NCBI RefSeq assembly: GCF_024223415.1
Contig: NZ_CP100503.1
DNA: 64,000 bases
Reading direction: 5' to 3' (one strand)
Source of the DNA: Escherichia coli
Lineage (GTDB): Bacteria > Pseudomonadota > Gammaproteobacteria > Enterobacterales > Enterobacteriaceae
In this document: in pieces, positions 22,306 to 41,752 of the stretch
Numbering within the stretch: the stretch's first letter is position 1
How the letters are laid out: the number at the start of each line of letters is the position of its first letter
The notes under the pieces: generated by a model
Databases searched by the model: none
What the model saw: only the letters and a program-made list of their open reading frames with translations
Told to the model about the DNA's origin: nothing
Made by a program: the position numbers and the translations under genes

Positions 22306-22334
22306 GTATCGGCGTACACGCACACCTCTACAAT

Positions 22335-22410
22335 GGTGGGCTGTATGGGGCTACCTTCGGGTAGGCTGGTTACCTTGGACGCCAGTAAGGCCAACTCCGT
22401 ACAGTCCACC
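22335..22410 (+). ncRNA. c4: c4-like antisense repressor RNA, module i (about 76 nt)
   Basis: Shares scaffold GGTGGG...ATGGGG...TTCGG...CTGGTT-[b']-GCCAGT-[a']-C.CCGT...CCACC with the other two modules; carries CCTTGGAC and GGCCAA complementary to GTCTAAGG (22270, 22452) and ATTGGCC/ATTGGTC (22253, 22420). Confidence 0.55.
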
Positions 22411-22470
22411 GCCAGCAAGATTGGTCTCTTCTGCGGTGGTTACATACCAACGTCTAAGGAGGCTGCCAAT

Positions 22471-22692
22471 ATGGCTACTATCCCTACCCCAACTCATCCT
22501 GAATTTATCTGGCGCTTTTACTCCTGCCAAAAACGTCACTATCACTTCGTTATTGCACCAACAGAAGATGAGGCCCGCTCTCAGCTTCCTGACGCCCCAT
22601 GTATTTTCTCTGCCCGTTTTTCCACTGATTCACGCAATTCTCTCAGTTACTGGTGCCTCCCTGTTAACGCTTCTGCTCAGGAGGGACTATGA
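22471..22692 (+). CDS. icd: Icd-like protein (73 aa), translationally coupled to ant
   Basis: 73-codon ORF (MATIPTPTHPEFIWRFYSCQKRHYHF...) with ATGA overlap to ant; AGGAGG SD. The 119-aa track ORF 22333..22692 is an upstream extension across the RNA gene. Confidence 0.6.
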   Translation: MATIPTPTHPEFIWRFYSCQKRHYHFVIAPTEDEARSQLPDAPCIFSARFSTDSRNSLSYWCLPVNASAQEGL

Positions 22693-23804
22693 GAACGTCA
22701 TTAGTCACCCGTGAAGAGATGATCGAGGCAATTGAACAGCACACTGCCTGTATCAGTACCAGGGATATACCGGGCGTTATTGCCAACTACTTCATGATCA
22801 CCAAACAACTTTACCGGAGAAAGGACAAGAACGCGGTTCACCGCATTCTGCTAACCGATATCCGCGAATACCTGCTCGAACAGGGTCATCTGAATTACGC
22901 AACCGTCGCAGCCGAAACACGCAAGGAGGCACACAGAATGAAAGCAACTAACGTTAAATCAGAAAAAATTCATGCAACTTCAGTTCAGGAATCAGAGCTG
23001 GTGGTTGTTCAGAATCAGTCTGATGAAATTCCCGTTCTGGAATGGCTGGGAGTGCGTGTAGTGACAACCAAGATCCTTGCTAAGGGGTATGGGACCGATG
23101 CGGATAACATCAAGAAGAACTTTTCCCGTAATGCTGAACGTTTTTGTGAAGGCAAGCATTTCTATAAAGTTATTGGAGATGATTTGAACAATTTGCGGGT
23201 GACTTTAAGTAACTCACAAAATCCCATCTCTCCTAAAGCCCGTTCACTCATCCTCTGGACAGAACGCGGCGCTGCCCGTCACGCTAAAATGCTCGAAACC
23301 GATCAGGCATGGGCATTCTTTGAAAAACTGGAAGACAGCTACTTCCGGCAAAAAGAACAGCAACCGGTTGCAATCCCCCAAACATTACCAGAAGCCCTAC
23401 GCCTGGCTGCCGAACTGGCTGAACAAAAGCAGCTTCTGGAACAGAAAGCCCACCAGCTAAATCAGCAGCTGGTGGCCGCCGCTCCTAAGGTCGATTTTGC
23501 CGACCGGGTATCAGTAGCTAAAGGGATCCTGATTGGGAATTTTGCAAAGGTTGTTGGACTTAAGCAAAACGCGCTGTTTGCCTGGTTACGGGAGAACGGC
23601 ATCCTGATAGCGTCCGGTGGACGTAAAAATGTGCCGTTCCAGCAGTACATCAACGCGGGGTATTTCACGGTGAAAGAAGTGGTGCTGGATGATGAAGATG
23701 GCTACCAGATACGGTTGACGCCTCAATTAACGGGTAAAGGCCAGCAGTGGTTGACGCGTAAACTGCTCGATGCTGGCTTGTTAAAACCGGTGGCGGCTGA
23801 ATAA
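22689..23804 (+). CDS. ant: Antirepressor Ant-like protein, paralog i (371 aa; AntA/Bro-N-like central domain, conserved Ant C-terminal domain)
   Basis: Conserved N-terminal 85 aa and C-terminal about 150 aa shared with four other genes in the window; immI-type context. Confidence 0.65.
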   Translation: MRTSLVTREEMIEAIEQHTACISTRDIPGVIANYFMITKQLYRRKDKNAVHRILLTDIREYLLEQGHLNYATVAAETRKEAHRMKATNVKSEKIHATSVQESELVVVQNQSDEIPVLEWLGVRVVTTKILAKGYGTDADNIKKNFSRNAERFCEGKHFYKVIGDDLNNLRVTLSNSQNPISPKARSLILWTERGAARHAKMLETDQAWAFFEKLEDSYFRQKEQQPVAIPQTLPEALRLAAELAEQKQLLEQKAHQLNQQLVAAAPKVDFADRVSVAKGILIGNFAKVVGLKQNALFAWLRENGILIASGGRKNVPFQQYINAGYFTVKEVVLDDEDGYQIRLTPQLTGKGQQWLTRKLLDAGLLKPVAAE

Positions 23805-23836: not shown

Positions 23837-24688
23837 TTATTGCGCGCTTTCGGGGTTGTCGTTTACTGGCTGCCCCTTCTTGGTTTTACGGCTGCGCGTA
23901 ACTGATGCGGCTGACTTAACCTTTTTCTCTTCGCGAGTGATGGCAATTTGTTTTTTTACATTTTCAATATCTGCCAGGCGATATATTTTTGCTTGCGGCC
24001 AGCGGTCGCAGATGATCGGTTCTATGGAGTCATAAAGGCTAAATTTTGCTTTTTCGAATTCACCGTTGATGATAATTCCATCACGGAGAGTTTCATCGCA
24101 GATAAACACGCCACACAGTGGCACATGGTAACTCACTGATTTACCGTTATTGTAGTTAGGACTACTGGAGATGTAGTGAACGCGCAGCATTGTTTCGCTA
24201 AAGCCGTGTACGCGCATACGGAATTTTTCATCCTCCGGGTACTGCTTCATTAGCTCTTTTGTTGCTTCCAGGTTCTCTATGTATTTCGCACTGTGCTCAT
24301 TGAACCCCGCGCTTTTTTGGATGCGAATGTCCTTATCAATCAGATGAATAATGCGGCCAGCGGTCATGTTGACGCTGTTTACAGCTTCTGTCTGATAGGT
24401 CGTAACCTTACGCACACCGCGAAGGATGTTAGGCACAGGATATAAAATAGTCTTTGGGATATTGAGGTCTGGGTACTGTTCCAGTTCCCGCGCCATTAAA
24501 GTCCATTTATCAATTTCAGCCTGAATGCTGTCAGTTTCTTTGAACGGTAGAACGACAACCGGGCGTACAGGACGACCGTCGCTGGCTGTATCAACGTGTT
24601 GGGCGCGTGCAACAGCTTTTTTTAGAAAGAGATCCCTGAAGCTGACGAACTCCTGGTACAGTTGTTCGCCGTAGACATAATTTATCAT
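23837..24688 (-). CDS. c1: C1 repressor of lysogeny (283 aa)
   Basis: MINYVYGEQLYQEFVSFRDLFLKKAVARAQHVD... near-identical to P1 C1 as I recall; 283 aa. Confidence 0.92.
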   Translation of the reverse strand: MINYVYGEQLYQEFVSFRDLFLKKAVARAQHVDTASDGRPVRPVVVLPFKETDSIQAEIDKWTLMARELEQYPDLNIPKTILYPVPNILRGVRKVTTYQTEAVNSVNMTAGRIIHLIDKDIRIQKSAGFNEHSAKYIENLEATKELMKQYPEDEKFRMRVHGFSETMLRVHYISSSPNYNNGKSVSYHVPLCGVFICDETLRDGIIINGEFEKAKFSLYDSIEPIICDRWPQAKIYRLADIENVKKQIAITREEKKVKSAASVTRSRKTKKGQPVNDNPESAQ

Positions 24689-24798
24689 TGATCCTCCTCC
24701 AGAATTGACATGGTCAATAACGCCCGGCTGAGAAAACCGGTCATTACTGACCTATATTATAGAGGGATCAAACAAAAATAATAGATTTATTAGTGCAT

Positions 24799-25008
24799 TT
24801 ATTGTGAGTCTAACTGGTTAGTTGCCATGAGATATTCGATTGTGTCAGTGAGGTCATCCAGGTCGTCTTGGGTGATGCGGTACTCCTGATTGGATATCTT
24901 TGAGTAGTGTTCAGCAATGGCGCGGGCAGCGTCGGTTTCGGCAGGGTCTACAGATAAAGCGTTAGAGCAATATCTAACGTCGTCGATGGTTGGTTGAATG
25001 AAAGCCAT
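24799..25008 (-). CDS. coi: C1 inactivator Coi (69 aa)
   Basis: 69-aa ORF immediately upstream of c1 on the same strand, as in P1. Confidence 0.7.
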   Translation of the reverse strand: MAFIQPTIDDVRYCSNALSVDPAETDAARAIAEHYSKISNQEYRITQDDLDDLTDTIEYLMATNQLDSQ

Positions 25009-25390: not shown

Positions 25391-25424
25391 ATAACTTCGT
25401 ATAGCAAACATTATACGAAGTTAT
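25391..25424 (+). other. lox recombination site (loxP-like, 13-bp inverted arms, spacer GCAAACAT)
   Basis: ATAACTTCGTATA-GCAAACAT-TATACGAAGTTAT; arms identical to loxP, spacer differs at one position from GCATACAT as I recall it. Confidence 0.85.
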
Positions 25425-25661
25425 CTTAAGGGTTATTGAACATGATTAATTTACCTGTAAATCCATACAGTTCAATACCTTATCAGGTCAAATAGTGATC
25501 ACTTGATCATTTGATCAAGGTTGCGCTACGTAAAATCTGCGAAATGTTGGCAGTGTTTGTGCTCCAGATTTCGCGTAGCGCATATATCCCAAGATGGGAC
25601 TAAAAAGCTTTACCTAATCCCAGAATGGGACTAATATACTTGCCGGGATAAGGAATATGTA

Positions 25662-25964
25662 ATGAAGATTATTTCGGTAAAAACATTGAGGGATTTTTGG
25701 TCTGTGAATCCCGATGCAGAACAACCATTAAAGGCCTGGGTTGACGAAGTCTCCAAGGCCACCTGGAAAAGCCCGGCTGATATCAAAGCGCAGTACCGAT
25801 CTGCCAGCATTCTTAAAAACAGGCGGGTTGTCTTCAACATCAAAGGTAATGACTACAGATTAATTGTTGCAATTGCTTATCAGCGAGGATGGATGTTCGT
25901 TAAGTTTATTGGAACACATAAGGAATACGATGCCATCGACGCGGATACAATAGAGCTGGAGTAA
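25662..25964 (+). CDS. higB: HigB-like RelE/ParE-superfamily toxin (100 aa)
   Basis: Small basic protein (…KGNDYRLIVAIAYQRGWMFVKFIGTHKEYD) upstream of an HTH antitoxin; toxin-first order typical of HigBA. Confidence 0.6.
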   Translation: MKIISVKTLRDFWSVNPDAEQPLKAWVDEVSKATWKSPADIKAQYRSASILKNRRVVFNIKGNDYRLIVAIAYQRGWMFVKFIGTHKEYDAIDADTIELE

Positions 25965-25967
25965 ATC

Positions 25968-26327
25968 ATGAACATTAAACCTATCCGTACAGAACAAGAT
26001 TATCAGGCCGCACTACGCGCGGTCGAACCTATGTTCGATAACGAACCGGAAATGAACACCCCGGAAGGTGATTTCTTTGAGATAATGTGCCTGCTTATTG
26101 AAGAGTATGAAAAAAGACATTACCCAATTGAACCGCCTACACCCATTGAAGCGATTAAGTTCCGTATGGAACAGCAAGGGTTGACAGTGAAAGATCTGGA
26201 ACCGGCGATTGGTAAGTCGAACCGTGTTTACGAAGTTCTGAATGGAACGCGAAATTTAACGTTACCAATGATTAGGCGTTTGCACGTACAGTTTGGCATT
26301 CCTCTCGAAAGTCTGGTTGGTGTGTGA
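25968..26327 (+). CDS. higA: HigA-like HTH (XRE-family) antitoxin (119 aa)
   Basis: C-terminal helix-turn-helix (…LEPAIGKSNRVYEVLNGTRNLTLPMIRRL…); 3-bp gap after toxin gene. Confidence 0.6.
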   Translation: MNIKPIRTEQDYQAALRAVEPMFDNEPEMNTPEGDFFEIMCLLIEEYEKRHYPIEPPTPIEAIKFRMEQQGLTVKDLEPAIGKSNRVYEVLNGTRNLTLPMIRRLHVQFGIPLESLVGV

Positions 26328-26333
26328 CTTAAA

Positions 26334-27386
26334 ATGTCTAATGTCCTGACCGTACACCAAAATTTGCCTGCATTACCGGTCGATGCAACGAGTGATGAGG
26401 TTCGCAAGAACCTGATGGACATGTTCAGGGATCGCCAGGCGTTTTCTGAGCATACCTGGAAAATGCTTCTGTCCGTTTGCCGGTCGTGGGCGGCATGGTG
26501 CAAGTTGAATAACCGGAAATGGTTTCCCGCAGAACCTGAAGATGTTCGCGATTATCTTCTATATCTTCAGGCGCGCGGTCTGGCAGTAAAAACTATCCAG
26601 CAACATTTGGGCCAGCTAAACATGCTTCATCGTCGGTCCGGGCTGCCACGACCAAGTGACAGCAATGCTGTTTCACTGGTTATGCGGCGGATCCGAAAAG
26701 AAAACGTTGATGCCGGTGAACGTGCAAAACAGGCTCTAGCGTTCGAACGCACTGATTTCGACCAGGTTCGTTCACTCATGGAAAATAGCGATCGCTGCCA
26801 GGATATACGTAATCTGGCATTTCTGGGGATTGCTTATAACACCCTGTTACGTATAGCCGAAATTGCCAGGATCAGGGTTAAAGATATCTCACGTACTGAC
26901 GGTGGGAGAATGTTAATCCATATTGGCAGAACGAAAACGCTGGTTAGCACCGCAGGTGTAGAGAAGGCACTTAGCCTGGGGGTAACTAAACTGGTTGAGC
27001 GATGGATTTCTGTCTCTGGTGTAGCTGATGATCCGAATAACTACCTGTTTTGCCGCGTCAGAAAAAATGGTGTTGCCGCGCCATCACCCACCAGCCAGCT
27101 ATCAACTCGCGCCCTGGAAGGGATTTTTGAAGCAACTCACCGATTGATTTACGGGGCTAAGGATGACTCTGGCCAGAGGTACCTGGCCTGGTCTGGACAC
27201 AGTGCCCGTGTCGGAGCCGCGCGAGATATGGCCCGCGCCGGAGTTTCAATACCGGAGATCATGCAAGCTGGTGGCTGGACCAACGTAAATATTGTCATGA
27301 ACTATATCCGTAACCTGGATAGTGAAACAGGGGCAATGGTGCGCCTGCTGGAAGTTGACATCCTCCCCCACCTTCGCACTTCGTGA
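26334..27386 (+). CDS. cre: Cre tyrosine recombinase with IS-altered C-terminus (350 aa vs 343 in P1)
   Basis: MSNVLTVHQNLPALPVDATSDEVRKNLMDMFRDRQAFSEHTWK... matches P1 Cre through ...MVRLLE; last residues VDILPHLRTS are encoded by the inserted IS end. Confidence 0.9.
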   Translation: MSNVLTVHQNLPALPVDATSDEVRKNLMDMFRDRQAFSEHTWKMLLSVCRSWAAWCKLNNRKWFPAEPEDVRDYLLYLQARGLAVKTIQQHLGQLNMLHRRSGLPRPSDSNAVSLVMRRIRKENVDAGERAKQALAFERTDFDQVRSLMENSDRCQDIRNLAFLGIAYNTLLRIAEIARIRVKDISRTDGGRMLIHIGRTKTLVSTAGVEKALSLGVTKLVERWISVSGVADDPNNYLFCRVRKNGVAAPSPTSQLSTRALEGIFEATHRLIYGAKDDSGQRYLAWSGHSARVGAARDMARAGVSIPEIMQAGGWTNVNIVMNYIRNLDSETGAMVRLLEVDILPHLRTS

Positions 27387-28690: not shown

Positions 28691-29095
28691 ATGCAAAAAT
28701 ACAAAATCAATCGTTCAAGACATGCTGCCTTCCTTTTGCATGTTCATCTTGTCTTTGTAACAAAATACCGTCGAAAGATACTGGGAGAGTTACACTGTGC
28801 AGCATTCCATCAGTATGCAGCAGAAGTCTGCCGTGACTTTGGGGCAGAACTTAAAGAAAGTAACGGAGATGTCGATCATGTCCACATGCTGATCGAATAC
28901 CCACCAACAGTGCAGCTTTCGGTACTGGTTAACTCACTGAAAGCAGTGACATCCCGCCGTCTGCGAAACGAATTTCTTGATTTGCGGGGGGCATACGGAA
29001 AAGCCGTGCTCTGGTCGAGGTCATACTTTGCTGGCTCCTGCGGAGGTGCGCCGCTGGAAGTTGTGAAGCAATATATTCAACATCAGCGAGGCTGA
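28691..29095 (+). CDS. tnpA: TnpA Y1 (HUH) transposase of IS-A (134 aa)
   Basis: HVHLVF (HUH) motif and IS200-like size. Confidence 0.8.
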   Translation: MQKYKINRSRHAAFLLHVHLVFVTKYRRKILGELHCAAFHQYAAEVCRDFGAELKESNGDVDHVHMLIEYPPTVQLSVLVNSLKAVTSRRLRNEFLDLRGAYGKAVLWSRSYFAGSCGGAPLEVVKQYIQHQRG

Positions 29096-29233: not shown

Positions 29234-29545
29234 ATGAGAAAGGATTTCAACATCGACGGAAAATATGTAGTGCTGTCTGTAAGCACTAATATTCAGTCGC
29301 CAGCCGTCATTGTCACTGTAAAGCTGAGCGATAGAATACCTGATATTGACTCAATATCCGTTGCGTTCCCTGTCAAAAGTATTCGTAGTGCTGAACATTT
29401 CGTGATGAATGCCACCGAGGAAGAAGCACGGCGCGGTTTTGCTAAAGTGATGTCTGAGTTTGGCGAACTCTTGGGTAAGGTTAACAATGTCCTTTCAATC
29501 AGTTCAGCAAGGTCCAAAGCGTTAACAGCTTCCATGATGAAATAA
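29234..29545 (+). CDS. Hypothetical protein (103 aa)
   Basis: ORF with upstream operator-like motif; no motif recognised. Confidence 0.35.
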   Translation: MRKDFNIDGKYVVLSVSTNIQSPAVIVTVKLSDRIPDIDSISVAFPVKSIRSAEHFVMNATEEEARRGFAKVMSEFGELLGKVNNVLSISSARSKALTASMMK

Positions 29546-29785: not shown

Positions 29786-30850
29786 TCATTCAGCCGCCAC
29801 AGGTTTTAACAAGCCAGCATCGAGCAGTTTACGCGTCAACCACTGCTGGCCTTTCCCCGTTAATTGGGGCGTCAGCCGTATCTGGTAGCCCTCTTCATCA
29901 TCCAGCACCACTTCTTTCACTGTGAAATATCCGGCGTTTATGTACTGCTGGAACGGTACATTTTTACGTCCACCGGACGCTATCAGGATGCCGTTCTCCC
30001 GTAACCAGGCAAACAGCGCGTTTTGCTTAAGTCCAACAACCTTTGCAAAATTCCCAATCAGGATTCCATTAGCCACTGATACCCGGTCGGCAAAATCGAC
30101 TTTAGGAGCGGCGGCCACCAGCTGCTGATTTAGCTGGTGGGCTTTCTGTTCCAGAAGTTGCTTTTGTTCAGCCAACTCGGCAGCCAGGCGGAGGGCTTCG
30201 GGGAGTGTCTGGGGGATCGCTGGAGAAGCAGCGCTAACCTGCTGCAACTCCTCCAGCTTGTCGATCAACGAACGGCGGACCGCTTTTGACTCGCGCGCGG
30301 CAACTCGCAGGGCTTGTTTGTAGGTCATGGTTATGACCTCAAAAGAGCGCCCAGCCCTTGTGCCATGGGATTTTACGAAAGTTTCGTAAAATTCCCCATC
30401 AAGTTCATCCTTAATTCTATTGAGAAAATCGTTATTGCGGATCTCATTTTCCCCACATAGCTTGCGCGCCTCATTGACCATCTTTAACAGTGTCTGGCTG
30501 TCGATTGTGTCGCCCGTACTGGGGATAACATCCATGGCTGGTAGTGGTGTGGATTCTATCAAAGGCTTTGTAACGACAACATCTGGTTTGCTTGCTTTCA
30601 TTCTGTGTGCCTCCTTGCGTGCTTCGGCGGTTACGGTTGCATAATCAAGACGACCCTGTTCGAGCAGGTATTCACGGATATCAGTTAGCAGAATGCGGTG
30701 AACCGCGTTCTTGTCCTTTCTCCGGTAAAGTTGTTTGGTGATCATGAAGTAGTTGGCTATAACACCAGGAATGTCCCTGGCGCTGATACAGATTGTGTGC
30801 TGTTCAATAGCCTCGATCATTTCTTCACGGGTAACTAATGACGTTCTCAT
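29786..30850 (-). CDS. ant: Antirepressor Ant-like protein, paralog ii (354 aa; Rha-like central domain)
   Basis: Shares N- and C-terminal domains with paralogs i and iii; different central domain; coupled to icd. Confidence 0.65.
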   Translation of the reverse strand: MRTSLVTREEMIEAIEQHTICISARDIPGVIANYFMITKQLYRRKDKNAVHRILLTDIREYLLEQGRLDYATVTAEARKEAHRMKASKPDVVVTKPLIESTPLPAMDVIPSTGDTIDSQTLLKMVNEARKLCGENEIRNNDFLNRIKDELDGEFYETFVKSHGTRAGRSFEVITMTYKQALRVAARESKAVRRSLIDKLEELQQVSAASPAIPQTLPEALRLAAELAEQKQLLEQKAHQLNQQLVAAAPKVDFADRVSVANGILIGNFAKVVGLKQNALFAWLRENGILIASGGRKNVPFQQYINAGYFTVKEVVLDDEEGYQIRLTPQLTGKGQQWLTRKLLDAGLLKPVAAE

Positions 30851-31068
30851 AGCCCCTCCTGAGCAGAAGCGTTAACAGGGAGGCACCAGTAACTGAGAGA
30901 GTTGCGCGAGTCAGTAGAAAAGCGTGCAGAGAAAATGCAGGGAGCGTCAGGAAGCTGAGAACGGGCCTCATCTTCTGTTGGTGCAATGACGAAGTGATAG
31001 TGACGTTTTTGACAAGAATAGAAGCGCCAGATAAATTCCGGGCGTGCGCAAGGATTGGCATTAACCAT
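30847..31068 (-). CDS. icd: Icd-like protein (73 aa), module ii
   Basis: MVNANPCARPEFIWRFYSCQKRHYHF...; ATGA overlap with ant. Confidence 0.6.
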   Translation of the reverse strand: MVNANPCARPEFIWRFYSCQKRHYHFVIAPTEDEARSQLPDAPCIFSARFSTDSRNSLSYWCLPVNASAQEGL

Positions 31069-31118
31069 AGTTACGGCCTCACAAGTTGAATTAACAACCT
31101 GCTACCCGCTGTCAAACA

Positions 31119-33086: not shown

Positions 33087-33308
33087 ATGGTTAATGCCAA
33101 TCCTTGCGCACGCCCTGAATTTATCTGGCGCTTTTACTCCTGCCAAAAACGTCACTATCACTTCGTTATTGCACCAACAGAAGATGAGGCCCGCTCTCAG
33201 CTTCCTGACGCCCCATGTATTTTCTCTGCCCGCTTTTCCACTGATTCGCGCAACTCTCTCAGTTACTGGTGCCTCCCTGTTAACGCTTCTGCTCAGGAGG
33301 GACTATGA
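33087..33308 (+). CDS. icd: Icd-like protein (73 aa), module iii
   Basis: 73 codons; stop overlaps ant start. Confidence 0.6.
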   Translation: MVNANPCARPEFIWRFYSCQKRHYHFVIAPTEDEARSQLPDAPCIFSARFSTDSRNSLSYWCLPVNASAQEGL

Positions 33309-34417
33309 GAACATCGTTAGTTACCCGTGAAGAGATGATCGAGGCAATTGAACAGCACACTGCCTGTATCAGTACCAGGGATATACCGGGCGTTATTGCC
33401 AACTACTTCATGATCACCAAACAACTTTACCGGAGAAAGGACAAAAACGCGGTTCACCGCATTCTGCTAACCGATATCCGTGAATACCTGCTCGAACAGG
33501 GTCATCTGAATTACGCAACCGTCGCAGCCGAAGCACGCAAGGAGGCACACAGAATGAAAGCAACTAACGTTAAATCAGAAAAAATTTATGCACCTTCAGT
33601 TCAGGAATCGGAACTGGTGGTTGTTCAGAATCAGCCGGATGAAATTCCCGTTCTGGAATGGCAGGGAGTACGTGTCGTGACAACCGAAACTCTTGCTAGA
33701 GGGTATGGGACCGAAACTAATAACATCAAAGTTAACTATACGCGTAATGCTGATCGCTTTGAGGAAGGTAAACATTACTTTCTACTAACTGGTTCAAAAT
33801 TAAAAGAATTGAAGGACAAGGTTACTCAAAGTAACTTAGTCGCACCGCGAGCAAAGCACCTCACTCTCTGGACGGAACGCGGCGCAGCCCGCCACGCTAA
33901 AATGCTCGAAACCGATCAGGCATGGGCATTCTTTGAAAAACTGGAAGACAGCTACTTCCGACAAAAAGAACAGCAACCGATCGCAATCCCCCAGACGCTT
34001 CCTGAAGCTCTGCGCCTGGCTGCCGAACTGGCTGAACAAAAGCAACTTCTGGAACAGAAAGCCCACCAGCTAAATCAGCAGCTGGTGGCCGCAGCCCCTA
34101 AAGTCGAGTTTGCCGACCGGGTATCAGTGGCCAAGGGGATCCTGATTGGGAATTTTGCAAAGGTTGTTGGACTTAAGCAAAACGCGCTGTTTGCCTGGTT
34201 ACGGGAGAACGGCATCCTGATAGCGTCCGGTGGACGTAAAAATGTGCCGTTCCAGCAATACATCAACGCCGGGTATTTCACGGTGAAAGAAGTGGTGCTG
34301 GATGATGAAGATGGCTACCAGATACGGTTGACGCCCCAGCTAACTGGGAAAGGCCAGCAGTGGTTGACGCGTAAACTGCTCGATGCTGGCTTGTTAAAAC
34401 CGGTGGCGGCTGAATAA
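33305..34417 (+). CDS. ant: Antirepressor Ant-like protein, paralog iii (370 aa; AntA/Bro-N-like central domain)
   Basis: Near-identical N/C-terminal domains to paralog i; central domain diverged. Confidence 0.65.
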   Translation: MRTSLVTREEMIEAIEQHTACISTRDIPGVIANYFMITKQLYRRKDKNAVHRILLTDIREYLLEQGHLNYATVAAEARKEAHRMKATNVKSEKIYAPSVQESELVVVQNQPDEIPVLEWQGVRVVTTETLARGYGTETNNIKVNYTRNADRFEEGKHYFLLTGSKLKELKDKVTQSNLVAPRAKHLTLWTERGAARHAKMLETDQAWAFFEKLEDSYFRQKEQQPIAIPQTLPEALRLAAELAEQKQLLEQKAHQLNQQLVAAAPKVEFADRVSVAKGILIGNFAKVVGLKQNALFAWLRENGILIASGGRKNVPFQQYINAGYFTVKEVVLDDEDGYQIRLTPQLTGKGQQWLTRKLLDAGLLKPVAAE

Positions 34418-34459
34418 TGGAAGAATGCCCGGTTGATGCCGGGCAAAAGGGCGGAAAGT

Positions 34460-38100: not shown

Positions 38101-40068
38101 ATCGGCGTACTCCGGCAGGAAACGATAGGTGATCCTGCGATAGTACAGGTCCATGTCAGTACATACGCGGTCCATATCCCTGATTATTGAGAAGATCGGA
38201 CGGGCTTTCTCGTGCTCAATCACGCCGTCTTCATTGACCGAGGTCGTTACGCCATTGTTGGCTTTGGCTGCCGCTTCCGCCTGCTGACGCAATTCTTCAT
38301 ACGCCGCCAGTTGTTCTTCCGTAAGTGGTGCATCCTGCTGGTGTTCGTCCAGTTCCGGGATCTCCACGGTATCCTTAACGTCTTCCGCCGTTTTAAGCGT
38401 TGTCCAGCGATGGAATATGCCGCGCAGCGCATCAAGGTTTTCAAAGCCCACCAGCGCCATTTTTTCTTCAACTTCACCGCTAATTTTCTGTACCGTTTCC
38501 AGCCTGGTCTTGCCGAAGAATTTAACGAAGTCATCAGGACCGTAGATCCCCATCTTCTGCCAGTATTCCTTCGGCAGCACATGAGAAAGCATGTTGTATG
38601 CATCGATCGGGGTGTTAACGACTGGCGTTGCAGTCAGGAGAACCGGTCCGCGCCCACCATTCTTTTTCATCAGGTACGCGTTTTTAATTGCCATATCCCG
38701 CGCCGATTGCGCCACCGCGCTGGTGGGCAGATAGGCCAGTTGTGACGCTTCGCGACCATTTTTATAGCTATTGCGGTAGTTGTGACCTTCGTCAGCGATC
38801 ACACTATCGAAGCCCATATCCTCAAAGTACGGATACTTCTCTGCTTTTTCGGTGCCGGTATCTGAATACTCCGACAATACCCGGCGACGCGCGGCCTCTT
38901 TGCGGTGGGAGTCGGAGTCCATTGCGCTGGCTACGCGCCCGGCGGCAACGAAGTCATAAAGCATATCCTGTGCATGCTCATCTACGGTGTCATCACGTAG
39001 CGGAATGCGGGCGTATTGTTCTTTGGTAAACACGACTGCACGGTAATTTGAGTGCGGGATCGCGTTCATCCGCGCCGTGATAGTGGCTTCATCTGCCAGC
39101 TTAAGAGCATCGCGCATAACTGGAGTGCCATCAGTACCAAGAACAGGTTTACCGTTCTCATTGAGCACCGGCACCTGGCGAATCTGATCGCCATCCATCA
39201 GCACATCAAGACCGACGAACAGGTAGTTACTGAATGCCTCTTCACTCAGGAACTCTTTTGCTTCGTAATACCAGTTTTCCAGCACTGATTTAGGCACTAC
39301 ATACGCAGTACGGGTGGAACGACCGTTCTCATAGTTGAACGCCTCAAGCGCCAGCGCGGTCGTGGTTTTACCCAGCCCGGTACCGAAGCCCAGGATGCCG
39401 CGCCCATCTTCGGACAGTCGGCGCACCTCGCTATTCTGGTAATCAAATGGCTGTCGCTTACCGCTTAATCCCTTCAACCCAAGCGGATCGCCAGAGTGTT
39501 CATACGGGATATTGCTATTGAACACATCGTTGTATTTGGCAACCAGCTCATCGTAGCGATCGTGCGTCTTGATCCACTTATTGAACTGGTCCTCAAGCAG
39601 TGCCATCTGCTCGCGGTAGCCGTTCGCCGTCGCGCTATCTTTGCCACCGATACGCGCACCATTGAGATACTTTTCCAGCTGTGCCGGGAACCCGGTCGCG
39701 TTTTCACCTGATTTACGGTCCCACTCGTAGCGGATCTCGCCTGTTTCTTTATCCTTGCGCTGGACGACACCGTATCGGTGCCCGACGAACAGACCATCAC
39801 CACCGTGATAGGTGTCAGAAACCATTTCGTCGCCTTCCAGCTGCACTGACTGCACATAGCGAAGATCCGGATAGCCGTTTTCCTGCAAAAATTCCAGAAT
39901 GACGGAACGGTCGAACCAACGGCTATTGAGCTTAAAGCGGATATTCTCTGCTGGCGTCTTGATGCGCTTCTCTTCGATCGCTGCCAGCTGATTAAGGACG
40001 TTGTTCTTTACCCAGTGCGCCGTAAAGCCCCGTCCTTCAGGTCGGGGATATAAGGCGCGGTTTTCCAC
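35179..40068 (-). CDS. DarB-like SF2 helicase-domain protein, 5'-truncated by IS-B (1629 aa; first 19 codons IS-derived)
   Basis: Walker A GFGTGLGKTT and DExH VIADEGHNY; the ORF start lies inside the IS left end (40012-40068), and no methyltransferase-like N-terminal domain (expected from P1 DarB as I recall) is present. Confidence 0.55.
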   Translation of the reverse strand: MENRALYPRPEGRGFTAHWVKNNVLNQLAAIEEKRIKTPAENIRFKLNSRWFDRSVILEFLQENGYPDLRYVQSVQLEGDEMVSDTYHGGDGLFVGHRYGVVQRKDKETGEIRYEWDRKSGENATGFPAQLEKYLNGARIGGKDSATANGYREQMALLEDQFNKWIKTHDRYDELVAKYNDVFNSNIPYEHSGDPLGLKGLSGKRQPFDYQNSEVRRLSEDGRGILGFGTGLGKTTTALALEAFNYENGRSTRTAYVVPKSVLENWYYEAKEFLSEEAFSNYLFVGLDVLMDGDQIRQVPVLNENGKPVLGTDGTPVMRDALKLADEATITARMNAIPHSNYRAVVFTKEQYARIPLRDDTVDEHAQDMLYDFVAAGRVASAMDSDSHRKEAARRRVLSEYSDTGTEKAEKYPYFEDMGFDSVIADEGHNYRNSYKNGREASQLAYLPTSAVAQSARDMAIKNAYLMKKNGGRGPVLLTATPVVNTPIDAYNMLSHVLPKEYWQKMGIYGPDDFVKFFGKTRLETVQKISGEVEEKMALVGFENLDALRGIFHRWTTLKTAEDVKDTVEIPELDEHQQDAPLTEEQLAAYEELRQQAEAAAKANNGVTTSVNEDGVIEHEKARPIFSIIRDMDRVCTDMDLYYRRITYRFLPEYADAVQQLADSLPKQATSEDDDSDDSITQQSQYSLIDKGEFIQLQVPEAFEQEVNKRLARFGIDEQTVTHPVTPKYAKLIATLKEFFPEGKQIIFTDEKTQHQKLKRIICNALNLEPSKVGILNAQTVAEAGKTGKKLKAVKPPKELPDEPTDAQIAKYNEQMALYDAYIAQQNEMSLGGLEKIAADFQEGRTPIIICNKKAEVGINLHRGTTDIHHLTLPWTPASIAQRNGRGARVGSNRASVRVHYYCGKGSFDEYRLKTLKRKAGWISDILRSDKSEMENADANDMIEMQMYTAKDDGERLAMMQVQMDKAKAAQRARQKEQATIDLQNYIKAQHAAGEDVEVLTAELERSKAELEKTTAEVAKFKQAVMAKAADNADWKARWGSVHHTDRMLLAQYRASLKNAIQRKANISQAISRYEKLLNRTQKAATDIKRLRPLVEDAINKGILDVDPDLVNHASEFLVIGDRSWRVGQYYDCAGDIVRIKSLDFDSQRADVEIIFTFKGTKSGNWDVKTLDKQVDVTPDEDAVMQKISGGVSIAGINDIISCDDFYRFQQRGMIKITDSYGVQTTESGYSIDFVGTYTDPLKHAVYPDRRDGALKSSIAKWVLGMMSEGNNRQIRSAETFLVELFGSNYGDVIASYGDTLSPEAIQEKIADAIARMPEKTSQGATRNGDSELEVTNAIFGTNEFRASDYEITTAQFGTIGIYSNKAEIKQAMDAASARIAAERKANLNHAVAALTQSWVTAIREAATTGKITPAIADVVNDGSKFMDAYQMDAVKLPSAYGQLSYRMTYNLVSMFSDLAILGLVDLNEVTPELLSMRKNHVEILQRINTVLAGRTDEEKQADADRINLALGNITEEEIAARNEKQEELSSIQGDATSIAQSLGLNYRVSTADLKMMYAPKFAAGEVFGLQEASGMKGVLFRAKDAIKAKFGARWLPAKAKNSDFPGNWWIIETKHNVADVLAVIQQYA

Positions 40069-40605
40069 CTAACCAGGTGTTTGCTGTTGTTCAATGTATT
40101 GGCGGATGATGGATATTGGTGCGCCACCGCAGCTACTGGCAAAATAGCTGGGACTCCATAAAACGCCTTTGTAGTAATATCGGGCTGCAATATCTGGTCG
40201 ATCTCGTCGCAATAATCTACTCGATACGCCCTTGAGACTGTTCACCAGGCTGGATATCGCCAATTTGGGGGGATAGTTAATTAGCAGGTGAACGTGATCT
40301 CGTTCTCCATCCATTTCAACCAGTTCAGCTTCAAAATCAGCACATACACTTGAAAAGTAAGTGCGTAGTTTTTCTATTGCGTCATGGTCAAAAATCTGAC
40401 GTCGGTATTTTGCGACAAAGACCAGGTGAACGTGCATCAGGAAGACGCAGTGTCTTCCACGTCGGATATCAGTTTCTTTTTTTATGGACCAAAGTATAAT
40501 TTGGCTTATGAAACGACTACAAGCTTTCAAATTCCAGTTAAGACCAAATGGACAGCAGGAGCGTGAAATGAGGCGCTTCGCGGGCGCATGTCGTTTCGTT
40601 TTCAA
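40069..40605 (-). CDS. tnpA: TnpA Y1 (HUH) transposase of IS-B (N-terminus of track ORF probably over-extended)
   Basis: HVHLVF motif; homologous to IS-A TnpA. Confidence 0.75.
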   Translation of the reverse strand: MKTKRHAPAKRLISRSCCPFGLNWNLKACSRFISQIILWSIKKETDIRRGRHCVFLMHVHLVFVAKYRRQIFDHDAIEKLRTYFSSVCADFEAELVEMDGERDHVHLLINYPPKLAISSLVNSLKGVSSRLLRRDRPDIAARYYYKGVLWSPSYFASSCGGAPISIIRQYIEQQQTPG

Positions 40606-41716
40606 TCGTGCTCTGGCGCTTCAGAATGAGAATCATGAGGCCGGGAACAAATATATTTCTTATGCAAAGATGACTTCCTGGCTGGTTGAATGGAAAAATG
40701 CTACTGAAACGCAATGGCTTAAAGATTCTCCCTCACAGCCATTGCAGCAGTCACTGAAAGACCTTGAGCGAGCCTACAAAAATTTCTTTCAGAAGCGTGC
40801 CTCTTTTCCCCGCTTCAAAAAGCGGGGACAGAATGATGCATTCCGCTATCCGCAGGGCGTTAAGCTCGACCAAGGGAACGGTCGTATTTTTCTGCCAAAA
40901 CTTGGCTGGATGCACTACCGGAACAGCCGTCAGGTCTCGGGGATTGTGAAAAACGTCACTGTCAGCCAGTCCTGCGGTAAGTGGTACATCAGTATTCAGA
41001 CAGAAAGTGAAGTATCAACTCCGGTTCACCCTTCAGCATCAATAGTCGGTCTGGATGCAGGCGTGGCTAAACTCGCCACGCTGTCAGATGGCACAGTCTT
41101 TGAGCCTGTAAACAGTTTTCAGAAAAACCAGAAGACGCTGGCGAGACTTCAGCGACAGTTAAGCCGCAAGGTCAAATTCAGCAACAACTGGCAGAAGCAG
41201 AAATGCAAAATACAGCGACTGCATTCCCGTATCGCAAATATCCGCAGGGACTACCTTCACAAAGTCACAACGACCGTCAGCAAAAACCACGCCATGATAG
41301 TCATTGAGGATTTGAAGGTCAGTAACATGTCAAAGTCAGCAGCGGGTACGGTCAGCCAGCCGGGGCGCAATGTCCGGGCAAAATCAGGTTTAAACCGTTC
41401 GATACTGGATCAGGGCTGGTATGAAATGCGCCGTCAGCTTGAGTACAAGCAGCTCTGGCGAGGCGGTCAGGTGCTTGCGGTTCCGCCAGCGTACACAAGC
41501 CAGCGTTGCGCGTGCTGTGGTCATACAGCGAAAGAAAACCGCCTGTCACAAAGTCAATTCAGATGCCAGGTATGTGGATATACAGCGAACGCCGATGTAA
41601 ACGGCGCTCGTAACATTTTAGCGGCGGGGCACGCCGTTCTTGCCTGTGGAGGGATGGTGCAGTCAGGCCGCCCGTTGAAGCAGGAACCCACCGAAATGAT
41701 TCAGGCGACAGCCTGA
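40484..41716 (+). CDS. tnpB: TnpB of IS-B (410 aa)
   Basis: RuvC-like motifs and zinc finger. Confidence 0.85.
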
Positions 41717-41752
41717 ACGTAGCAGGAATCCACGTCCTTCAGGGCGTGGAGG

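Follow-up and report, generated by a model that had tools for sequence, protein, structure and literature searches.

A single-base spacer variant in the native lox site of a P1-family phage-plasmid of Escherichia coli

Cre recombinase recognises a lox site by its two arms and cuts each strand one base into the spacer; strand exchange then takes place over the 6-bp overlap (PMC4777119). The identity of the partner spacers is the main determinant of recombination (PMC2018622). A 34-bp stretch of Escherichia coli DNA with the arms of loxP and another spacer raises three questions: is it a genuine lox site of a P1-like element, is the spacer change a real mutation, and what could such a change mean for the element that carries it? 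The site lies on contig NZ_CP100503.1 (assembly GCF_024223415.1), and we call "the window" the whole stretch of 64,000 nucleotides of this contig that was analysed.

The site itself is the 34-mer ATAACTTCGTATAGCAAACATTATACGAAGTTAT, at 25391-25424 of the window, and can be parsed as ATAACTTCGTATA-GCAAACAT-TATACGAAGTTAT:

25391-25403, plus strand: left 13-bp Cre-binding arm ATAACTTCGTATA, with no difference from the loxP inverted repeat annotated in X03453
25404-25411, plus strand: 8-bp spacer GCAAACAT, with the variant base A at 25407 where the canonical base is T
25412-25424, plus strand: right 13-bp Cre-binding arm TATACGAAGTTAT, likewise with no difference from the annotated inverted repeat

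The reference for this comparison is GenBank X03453, in which positions 35-68 carry the annotation "loxP recombination site" and read ATAACTTCGTATA GCATACAT TATACGAAGTTAT. All 26 arm bases of the window site are identical to it, and the sole difference from P1 loxP is the T->A substitution at 25407. A sequence-only reading of this DNA had proposed that both arms are those of loxP and that the spacer is not canonical; both proposals hold, and the loxP spacer that it quoted is the annotated one. The substituted base is position 4 of the spacer on the plus strand, or position 5 in the numbering of Lee and Saito, in which the change reads A->T (ATGTATGC to ATGTTTGC). It lies within the 6 bp that separate the two points of Cre cleavage, and it breaks the central TA of the spacer. 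At 8 bp, GCAAACAT is asymmetric and is not its own reverse complement, so that the site keeps its direction. No second match to the loxP arms was found in the 64-kb window with up to 3 mismatches allowed, nor in 100 shuffles of the sequence, and among weaker lox-like candidates no other 34-mer of the window reaches 18 of the 26 arm matches.

The surroundings of the site are P1-like. The window belongs to a P1-family (Punavirus-like) phage-plasmid, with the gene order pacB, icd/ant, c1, coi, lox, a higB/higA-like pair and cre, and lox stands between the c1/coi immunity region and cre, which is its usual place in P1-like elements. The features on either side are as follows:

23837-25008, minus strand: immunity region with c1 and the coi-like frame, on the opposite side of lox from cre
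23837-24688, minus strand: c1 repressor gene, from the annotation of the identical stretch in NZ_CP128972.1 and from P1/P7 records
24799-25008, minus strand: coi-like open reading frame, from the same sources
25503-25536, plus strand: counterpart of the P1 cre promoter pR1, placed purely by homology, at a constant offset of 25356 from the features of X03453
25662-26327, plus strand: higB-like toxin gene and its partner, in the slot where P1 has cra
26334-27386, plus strand: cre, 350 aa, P1 Cre with L4V and A252P and with the terminal DGD replaced by VDILPHLRTS
27355 to about 29167, minus strand: IS200/IS605-family element inserted in the last three codons of cre, its junctions taken from the comparison with NZ_CP128972.1
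27406-28638, minus strand: TnpB (NF040570, E=8e-108)
28691-29095, plus strand: Y1 TnpA (PF01797 Y1_Tnp on the same gene in relatives)

The pR1 counterpart is GATC-rich, with a -35 element TTGATC at 25503-25508 or 25511-25516 and a -10 element TAAAAT at 25531-25536. P1 has two further promoters, pR2 and pR3, which lie inside cra and are absent from the window; since cra is replaced here by the higB-like pair, pR1 would read through a toxin-antitoxin pair into cre. The toxin gene (25662-25964) and its partner (25968-26327) are placed according to the RefSeq annotation of the identical stretch of NZ_CP128972.1; the toxin gene carries Pfam PF09907 (HigB_toxin) in relatives, and the pair gave no match in NCBIfam. 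The same arrangement, with the pair between lox and cre, is seen in NZ_CP128972.1 and in many draft assemblies, and phage D6 contains a relative with 86.7% DNA identity.

As for the recombinase, over residues 1-340 it shares about 99% identity with P1 Cre and matches solved (PDB) Cre structures with E=3e-227, and the catalytic residues R173, E176, K201, H289, R292, W315 and Y324 are all present. Apart from its tail of ten IS-derived residues, it is the same protein as the Cre of NZ_CP128972.1, a plasmid with the canonical spacer. By every feature that could be tested, 25391-25424 belongs to the P1 lox family, and we take it to be the phage-plasmid's own lox site.

The insertion at the end of cre invites the idea that the altered Cre was crippled, and that lox, relieved of constraint, is starting to decay. 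The replacement of the C-terminal DGD is indeed what one would point to in favour of such a scenario. Against it, the catalytic residues and the whole of residues 1-340 are intact, Cre proteins with C-terminal fusions are known to be active, and decay would strike the arms, with their 26 bases, more often than the spacer, with its 8. In addition, the lox site is perfect and canonical in all 15 other loci with the IS-tailed Cre that were read (some of them from the same assemblies). We find this scenario scarcely credible. The exact 350-aa IS-tailed protein is indexed in 227 blocks of a public assembly collection, from which it follows that the lineage combining higBA with the interrupted cre is a common one.

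Some other observations on this element deserve to be recorded. Two further copies of a related TnpB element, at 40007-41720 and 62287-64000, form 1.7-kb direct repeats (99.5% identical) with a spacing of 22.3 kb; lying on either side of the par/rep region, they could give rise to a deletion or a duplication. The stretch of 41.7-62.3 kb is not cargo; it is ordinary P1 maintenance DNA. The icd/antirepressor (KilAC) module exists in three diverged copies, about 90-95% identical (22333-23804, 29786-31100 and 33100-34450), and three copies in one element are also found in NZ_CP128972.1. Finally, an open reading frame of 900 aa for a Dmt-like DNA methyltransferase (59631-62333) has its C5-methylase domain split at position 71 of the Pfam model by an intein-like insert (Hint at 77-126, LAGLIDADG at 201-361, intein splicing domain ending at 418), and its downstream D12 (Dam-type) domain is truncated at 62287, where the TnpB-element repeat starts.

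How rare is this spacer? The variant was sought among PLSDB plasmids, phages, complete E. coli genomes, IMG/VR, metagenomes and 25 draft contigs that carry exact copies of neighbouring proteins. The variant 34-mer matched 735 PLSDB records, none of them at 100%, and it had no exact occurrence in the phage collection (14 records), in the complete E. coli genomes (696 records) or in an exact scan of the metagenome collection. Spacer GCAAACAT is likewise absent from 85 P1-type sites of IMG/VR, where a scan with the arms alone returned 93 canonical sites and four other spacers. The ten draft contigs retrieved through the IS-tailed Cre protein all carry GCATACAT; among the 15 retrieved through exact PacB or Ant proteins, 14 are canonical and one has GTATACAT. 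These relatives, sharing an exact PacB, Ant or IS-tailed Cre, are 95-98% identical to the window over the aligned stretch. A 7-kb query from the window reached at best 74% coverage among plasmids and E. coli genomes, the 36-mer spanning the cre-IS junction had no match in IMG/VR or the metagenomes, and the exact TnpB protein with the private SNPs is found in no record. Base 25407 is the sole difference between the window and its nearest complete record (NZ_CP128972.1 / AP026456.1) over some 5 kb, between about 22300 and 27354. A full-text search of the literature for the spacer string in a lox context, or for a name of the "lox52" type, returned nothing usable. In the collections searched, the spacer allele GCAAACAT is private to the window sequence.

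Such isolation is also what an error of base calling or assembly would look like, in which case the true sequence would be canonical loxP and there would be nothing unusual about this site. This is the main rival to a real mutation. Neither a total of roughly 1,500 natural P1-type lox sites nor the metagenome scan contains a second occurrence of the allele, its base is the only one to separate the window from its nearest plasmid over about 5 kb, the substitution itself creates an AAA run, and the window has at 29543 a private difference in homopolymer length (A8->A7) which is a typical kind of error. On the other hand, substitution errors are rare in finished consensus sequence. When it is compared with ten members of its lineage over 13 kb, 41 positions differ from all ten; most of these are grouped into two recombination-like patches, while about nine stand alone, among which are three in the IS, the spacer base 25407 and the homopolymer difference at 29543. 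The other isolated private substitutions resemble ordinary divergence, and the window is a genuine, distinct natural isolate. Furthermore, alleles found elsewhere in nature affect the same spacer positions, one of them (GCGAACAT) by the very same T->A. We think that an error is the less likely of the two, though far from negligible, and that the spacer change is probably a real mutation.

This brings us to the natural variation of lox spacers. In PLSDB the canonical 34-mer is exact in 668 records and not in 37, so that about 5% of P1-like plasmids are non-canonical; of these 37, 17 differ from the canonical sequence by one step, 12 by two or three and 8 by more. Between perfect arms and P1-type flanks, we found the natural spacers GCGAACAT, GCGTACAT, GCGTTCAT, GCATGCAT, GCATATAT, GTATACAT and ACACACAT, the flanks of the last being more diverged, though still recognisably P1-type. 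The change lies in the spacer in all six variant loci that were read, which represent four distinct alleles. In a set of 47 distinct IMG/VR haplotypes, the spacer is polymorphic at positions 3-5 and nowhere else; the position changed in the window is one of these. The density of polymorphic columns in these haplotypes is similar in the spacer (3/8) and in the flanks (19/60 and 15/60), and the minor-allele fraction is lower in the spacer (0.013) than in the flanks (0.024-0.048).

The allele GCGAACAT is of particular relevance. It has the T->A of the window at the same position, and GCAAACAT and GCGTACAT are the two one-step intermediates between it and the canonical spacer. A GCGAACAT site adjoins a Cre identical to that of P1, which argues that variant spacers need no altered Cre. 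Co-variation between Cre and spacer was looked for in the GCGAACAT element and between the window and the canonical-spacer plasmid, and none was found. The existence of natural spacer variants at positions 3-5, with Cre unchanged, makes a real point mutation in the window plausible. We also considered whether GCAAACAT could be a hybrid, produced by Cre recombination between a canonical and a GCGAACAT site. This is rejected on flank identity. A crossover at lox would join different flanks, whereas the window agrees with the canonical-spacer plasmid on both sides of the site, over 3 kb on the left and 2 kb on the right; the GCGAACAT elements already differ in the bases next to lox on either side.

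Three more observations concern the variation of lox at large. Natural P1-like plasmids of E. coli can carry the spacer of the laboratory site lox511 (GTATACAT, that is ATGTATAC), at 2501-2534 of NZ_CP019262.1 and at 8702-8735 of GCA_020416815.1. The viral contig IMGVR_UViG_2684622670_000009 carries at 1524-1557 a P1-type lox with the palindromic spacer GCATGCAT; this spacer being fully symmetric, the site should lack direction and could support inversion as well as excision. Lastly, the arms-only scan of the collection of genome contigs is dominated by probable loxP linker remnants in draft assemblies and is uninformative on natural diversity. Among the matches listed, canonical loxP is present many times per genome, and often at contig ends, in drafts of unrelated bacteria such as Candidatus Paracaedibacter symbiosus, Legionella tunisiensis, Sediminibacterium salmoneum and Litoribacter populi; such repetition fits left-over linkers of Cre-lox mate-pair libraries, not biology. 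In the searchable literature we found no description of a natural, low-frequency polymorphism of the lox spacer with invariant arms.

What would the variant do? Published work on engineered spacers allows a prediction. As summarised in PMC1479339, the 1998 study of Lee and Saito, which covered 24 single and 30 double substitutions of the loxP spacer, found that strand exchange and resolution require homology at positions 2-5 and 6-7. According to another summary of it, changes at position 7 impaired compatibility with the wild type most, those at positions 3-6 less, and those at positions 1 and 8 scarcely at all (PMC4777119). The single-base variant lox511 is leaky with the wild type (PMC1479339). 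The central TA was held to be important for strand exchange in older work, as cited in PMC1479339, and earlier libraries kept it fixed in the belief that it was essential; with a fully random spacer library, the central TA turned out not to be required, and every matched pair went to completion in Cre-expressing E. coli (PMC2018622).

On this literature, we predict that the window spacer would recombine normally with an identical copy of itself, although self-recombination could be slower than that of the wild type if the older work on the central TA is given weight. Recombination between the window site and wild-type loxP is expected to be reduced and leaky, not abolished. The suggestion made from the letters alone, namely that the site may still be a substrate of Cre while being partly incompatible with loxP, agrees with the published work and may be regarded as partly supported. 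Given the leakiness that the literature predicts, the site should not be filed as a clean heterospecific lox of the lox511/lox2272 class.

The P1 plasmid uses lox for two purposes, the cyclisation of terminally redundant DNA and the resolution of dimers. Both pair identical copies of the site, so the expected effect of the variant on the plasmid is small. The explanation that we favour, with somewhat better than even confidence, is that of a native P1-family lox site which has undergone a recent, lineage-private T->A, centrally placed in the 6-bp strand-swap region. The adjacent Cre would bind the intact arms and would use the site for circularising phage DNA on entry and for resolving plasmid dimers; the variant should still serve the plasmid, whose own reactions would in every case bring together two copies of the same site. 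The rate may be somewhat altered, because a flexible TpA step becomes an ApA step. A canonical loxP partner would give a mismatch in the swapped strands, and recombination with it would for this reason be reduced without being abolished. The biological consequence of the variant for the plasmid itself is probably nil.

One can of course imagine a more ambitious role for such alleles. Natural spacers could define partly isolated "recombination compatibility groups" among P1-like phage-plasmids, limiting Cre-mediated cointegration and hybrid formation between relatives that share a cell or infect it together, with positions 3-5 as a mutational network that would comprise the canonical spacer, GCGTACAT, GCAAACAT, GCGAACAT, GCGTTCAT and GCATGCAT. 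We consider this very unlikely. The corresponding selective hypothesis for the window, namely that its allele is an adaptive heterospecific one, selected for less cointegration or hybrid formation with co-resident or co-infecting P1-like elements that have canonical loxP, seems to us highly improbable. Several natural spacer alleles do exist with the arms untouched, the spacer being the part that changed at each of the six variant loci (four alleles), and partner choice is governed by spacer identity (PMC2018622), as this hypothesis would have it. But all these alleles are rare, as the low minor-allele fraction of the spacer relative to the flanks indicates, and none has spread; the changes are mostly central, where incompatibility is weakest, and not at positions 2 and 7 (PMC4777119); and GCAAACAT is a singleton. 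A recent mutation in a native lox site, with little or no effect on its bearer, remains our preferred explanation.

If the base is real, it adds one more allele to a natural lox spacer polymorphism of P1-like phage-plasmids, one that is small and has apparently not been described. This polymorphism shows that Cre tolerates drift of the spacer while the arms stay fixed, and that nature has produced counterparts of laboratory sites, the lox511 spacer for instance. In practical terms, a P1-like plasmid with GCAAACAT would be expected to recombine less well with loxP constructs or with wild-type P1.

Compared with P1 loxP (X03453), the window site has identical arms, an 8-bp asymmetric spacer, the same location between immC (c1/coi) and cre, and a Cre about 99% identical; it differs in having GCAAACAT where P1 has GCATACAT, and its surroundings differ by the higBA-like pair in place of cra and by the IS-derived C-terminal tail of Cre. 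Like the engineered loxP mutants (the Lee and Saito series, lox511), it has a single substitution inside the 6-bp overlap; unlike them, it sits in a natural phage-plasmid and not in a construct. Since 24 single substitutions are all the 8 x 3 possibilities, GCAAACAT should be among those of Lee and Saito, to judge from the count given in PMC1479339, whereas it is absent from the named tool sites lox511, lox5171, lox2272, m2, m3, m7 and m11 (PMC1479339). With the natural alleles GCGAACAT to GTATACAT it shares the arms, the flanks and the kind of change, GCAAACAT itself having been seen in no collection searched. As an engineered sequence it should already be contained in the single substitutions of 1998; as a natural allele it is new, a one-base variant of a well-known site.
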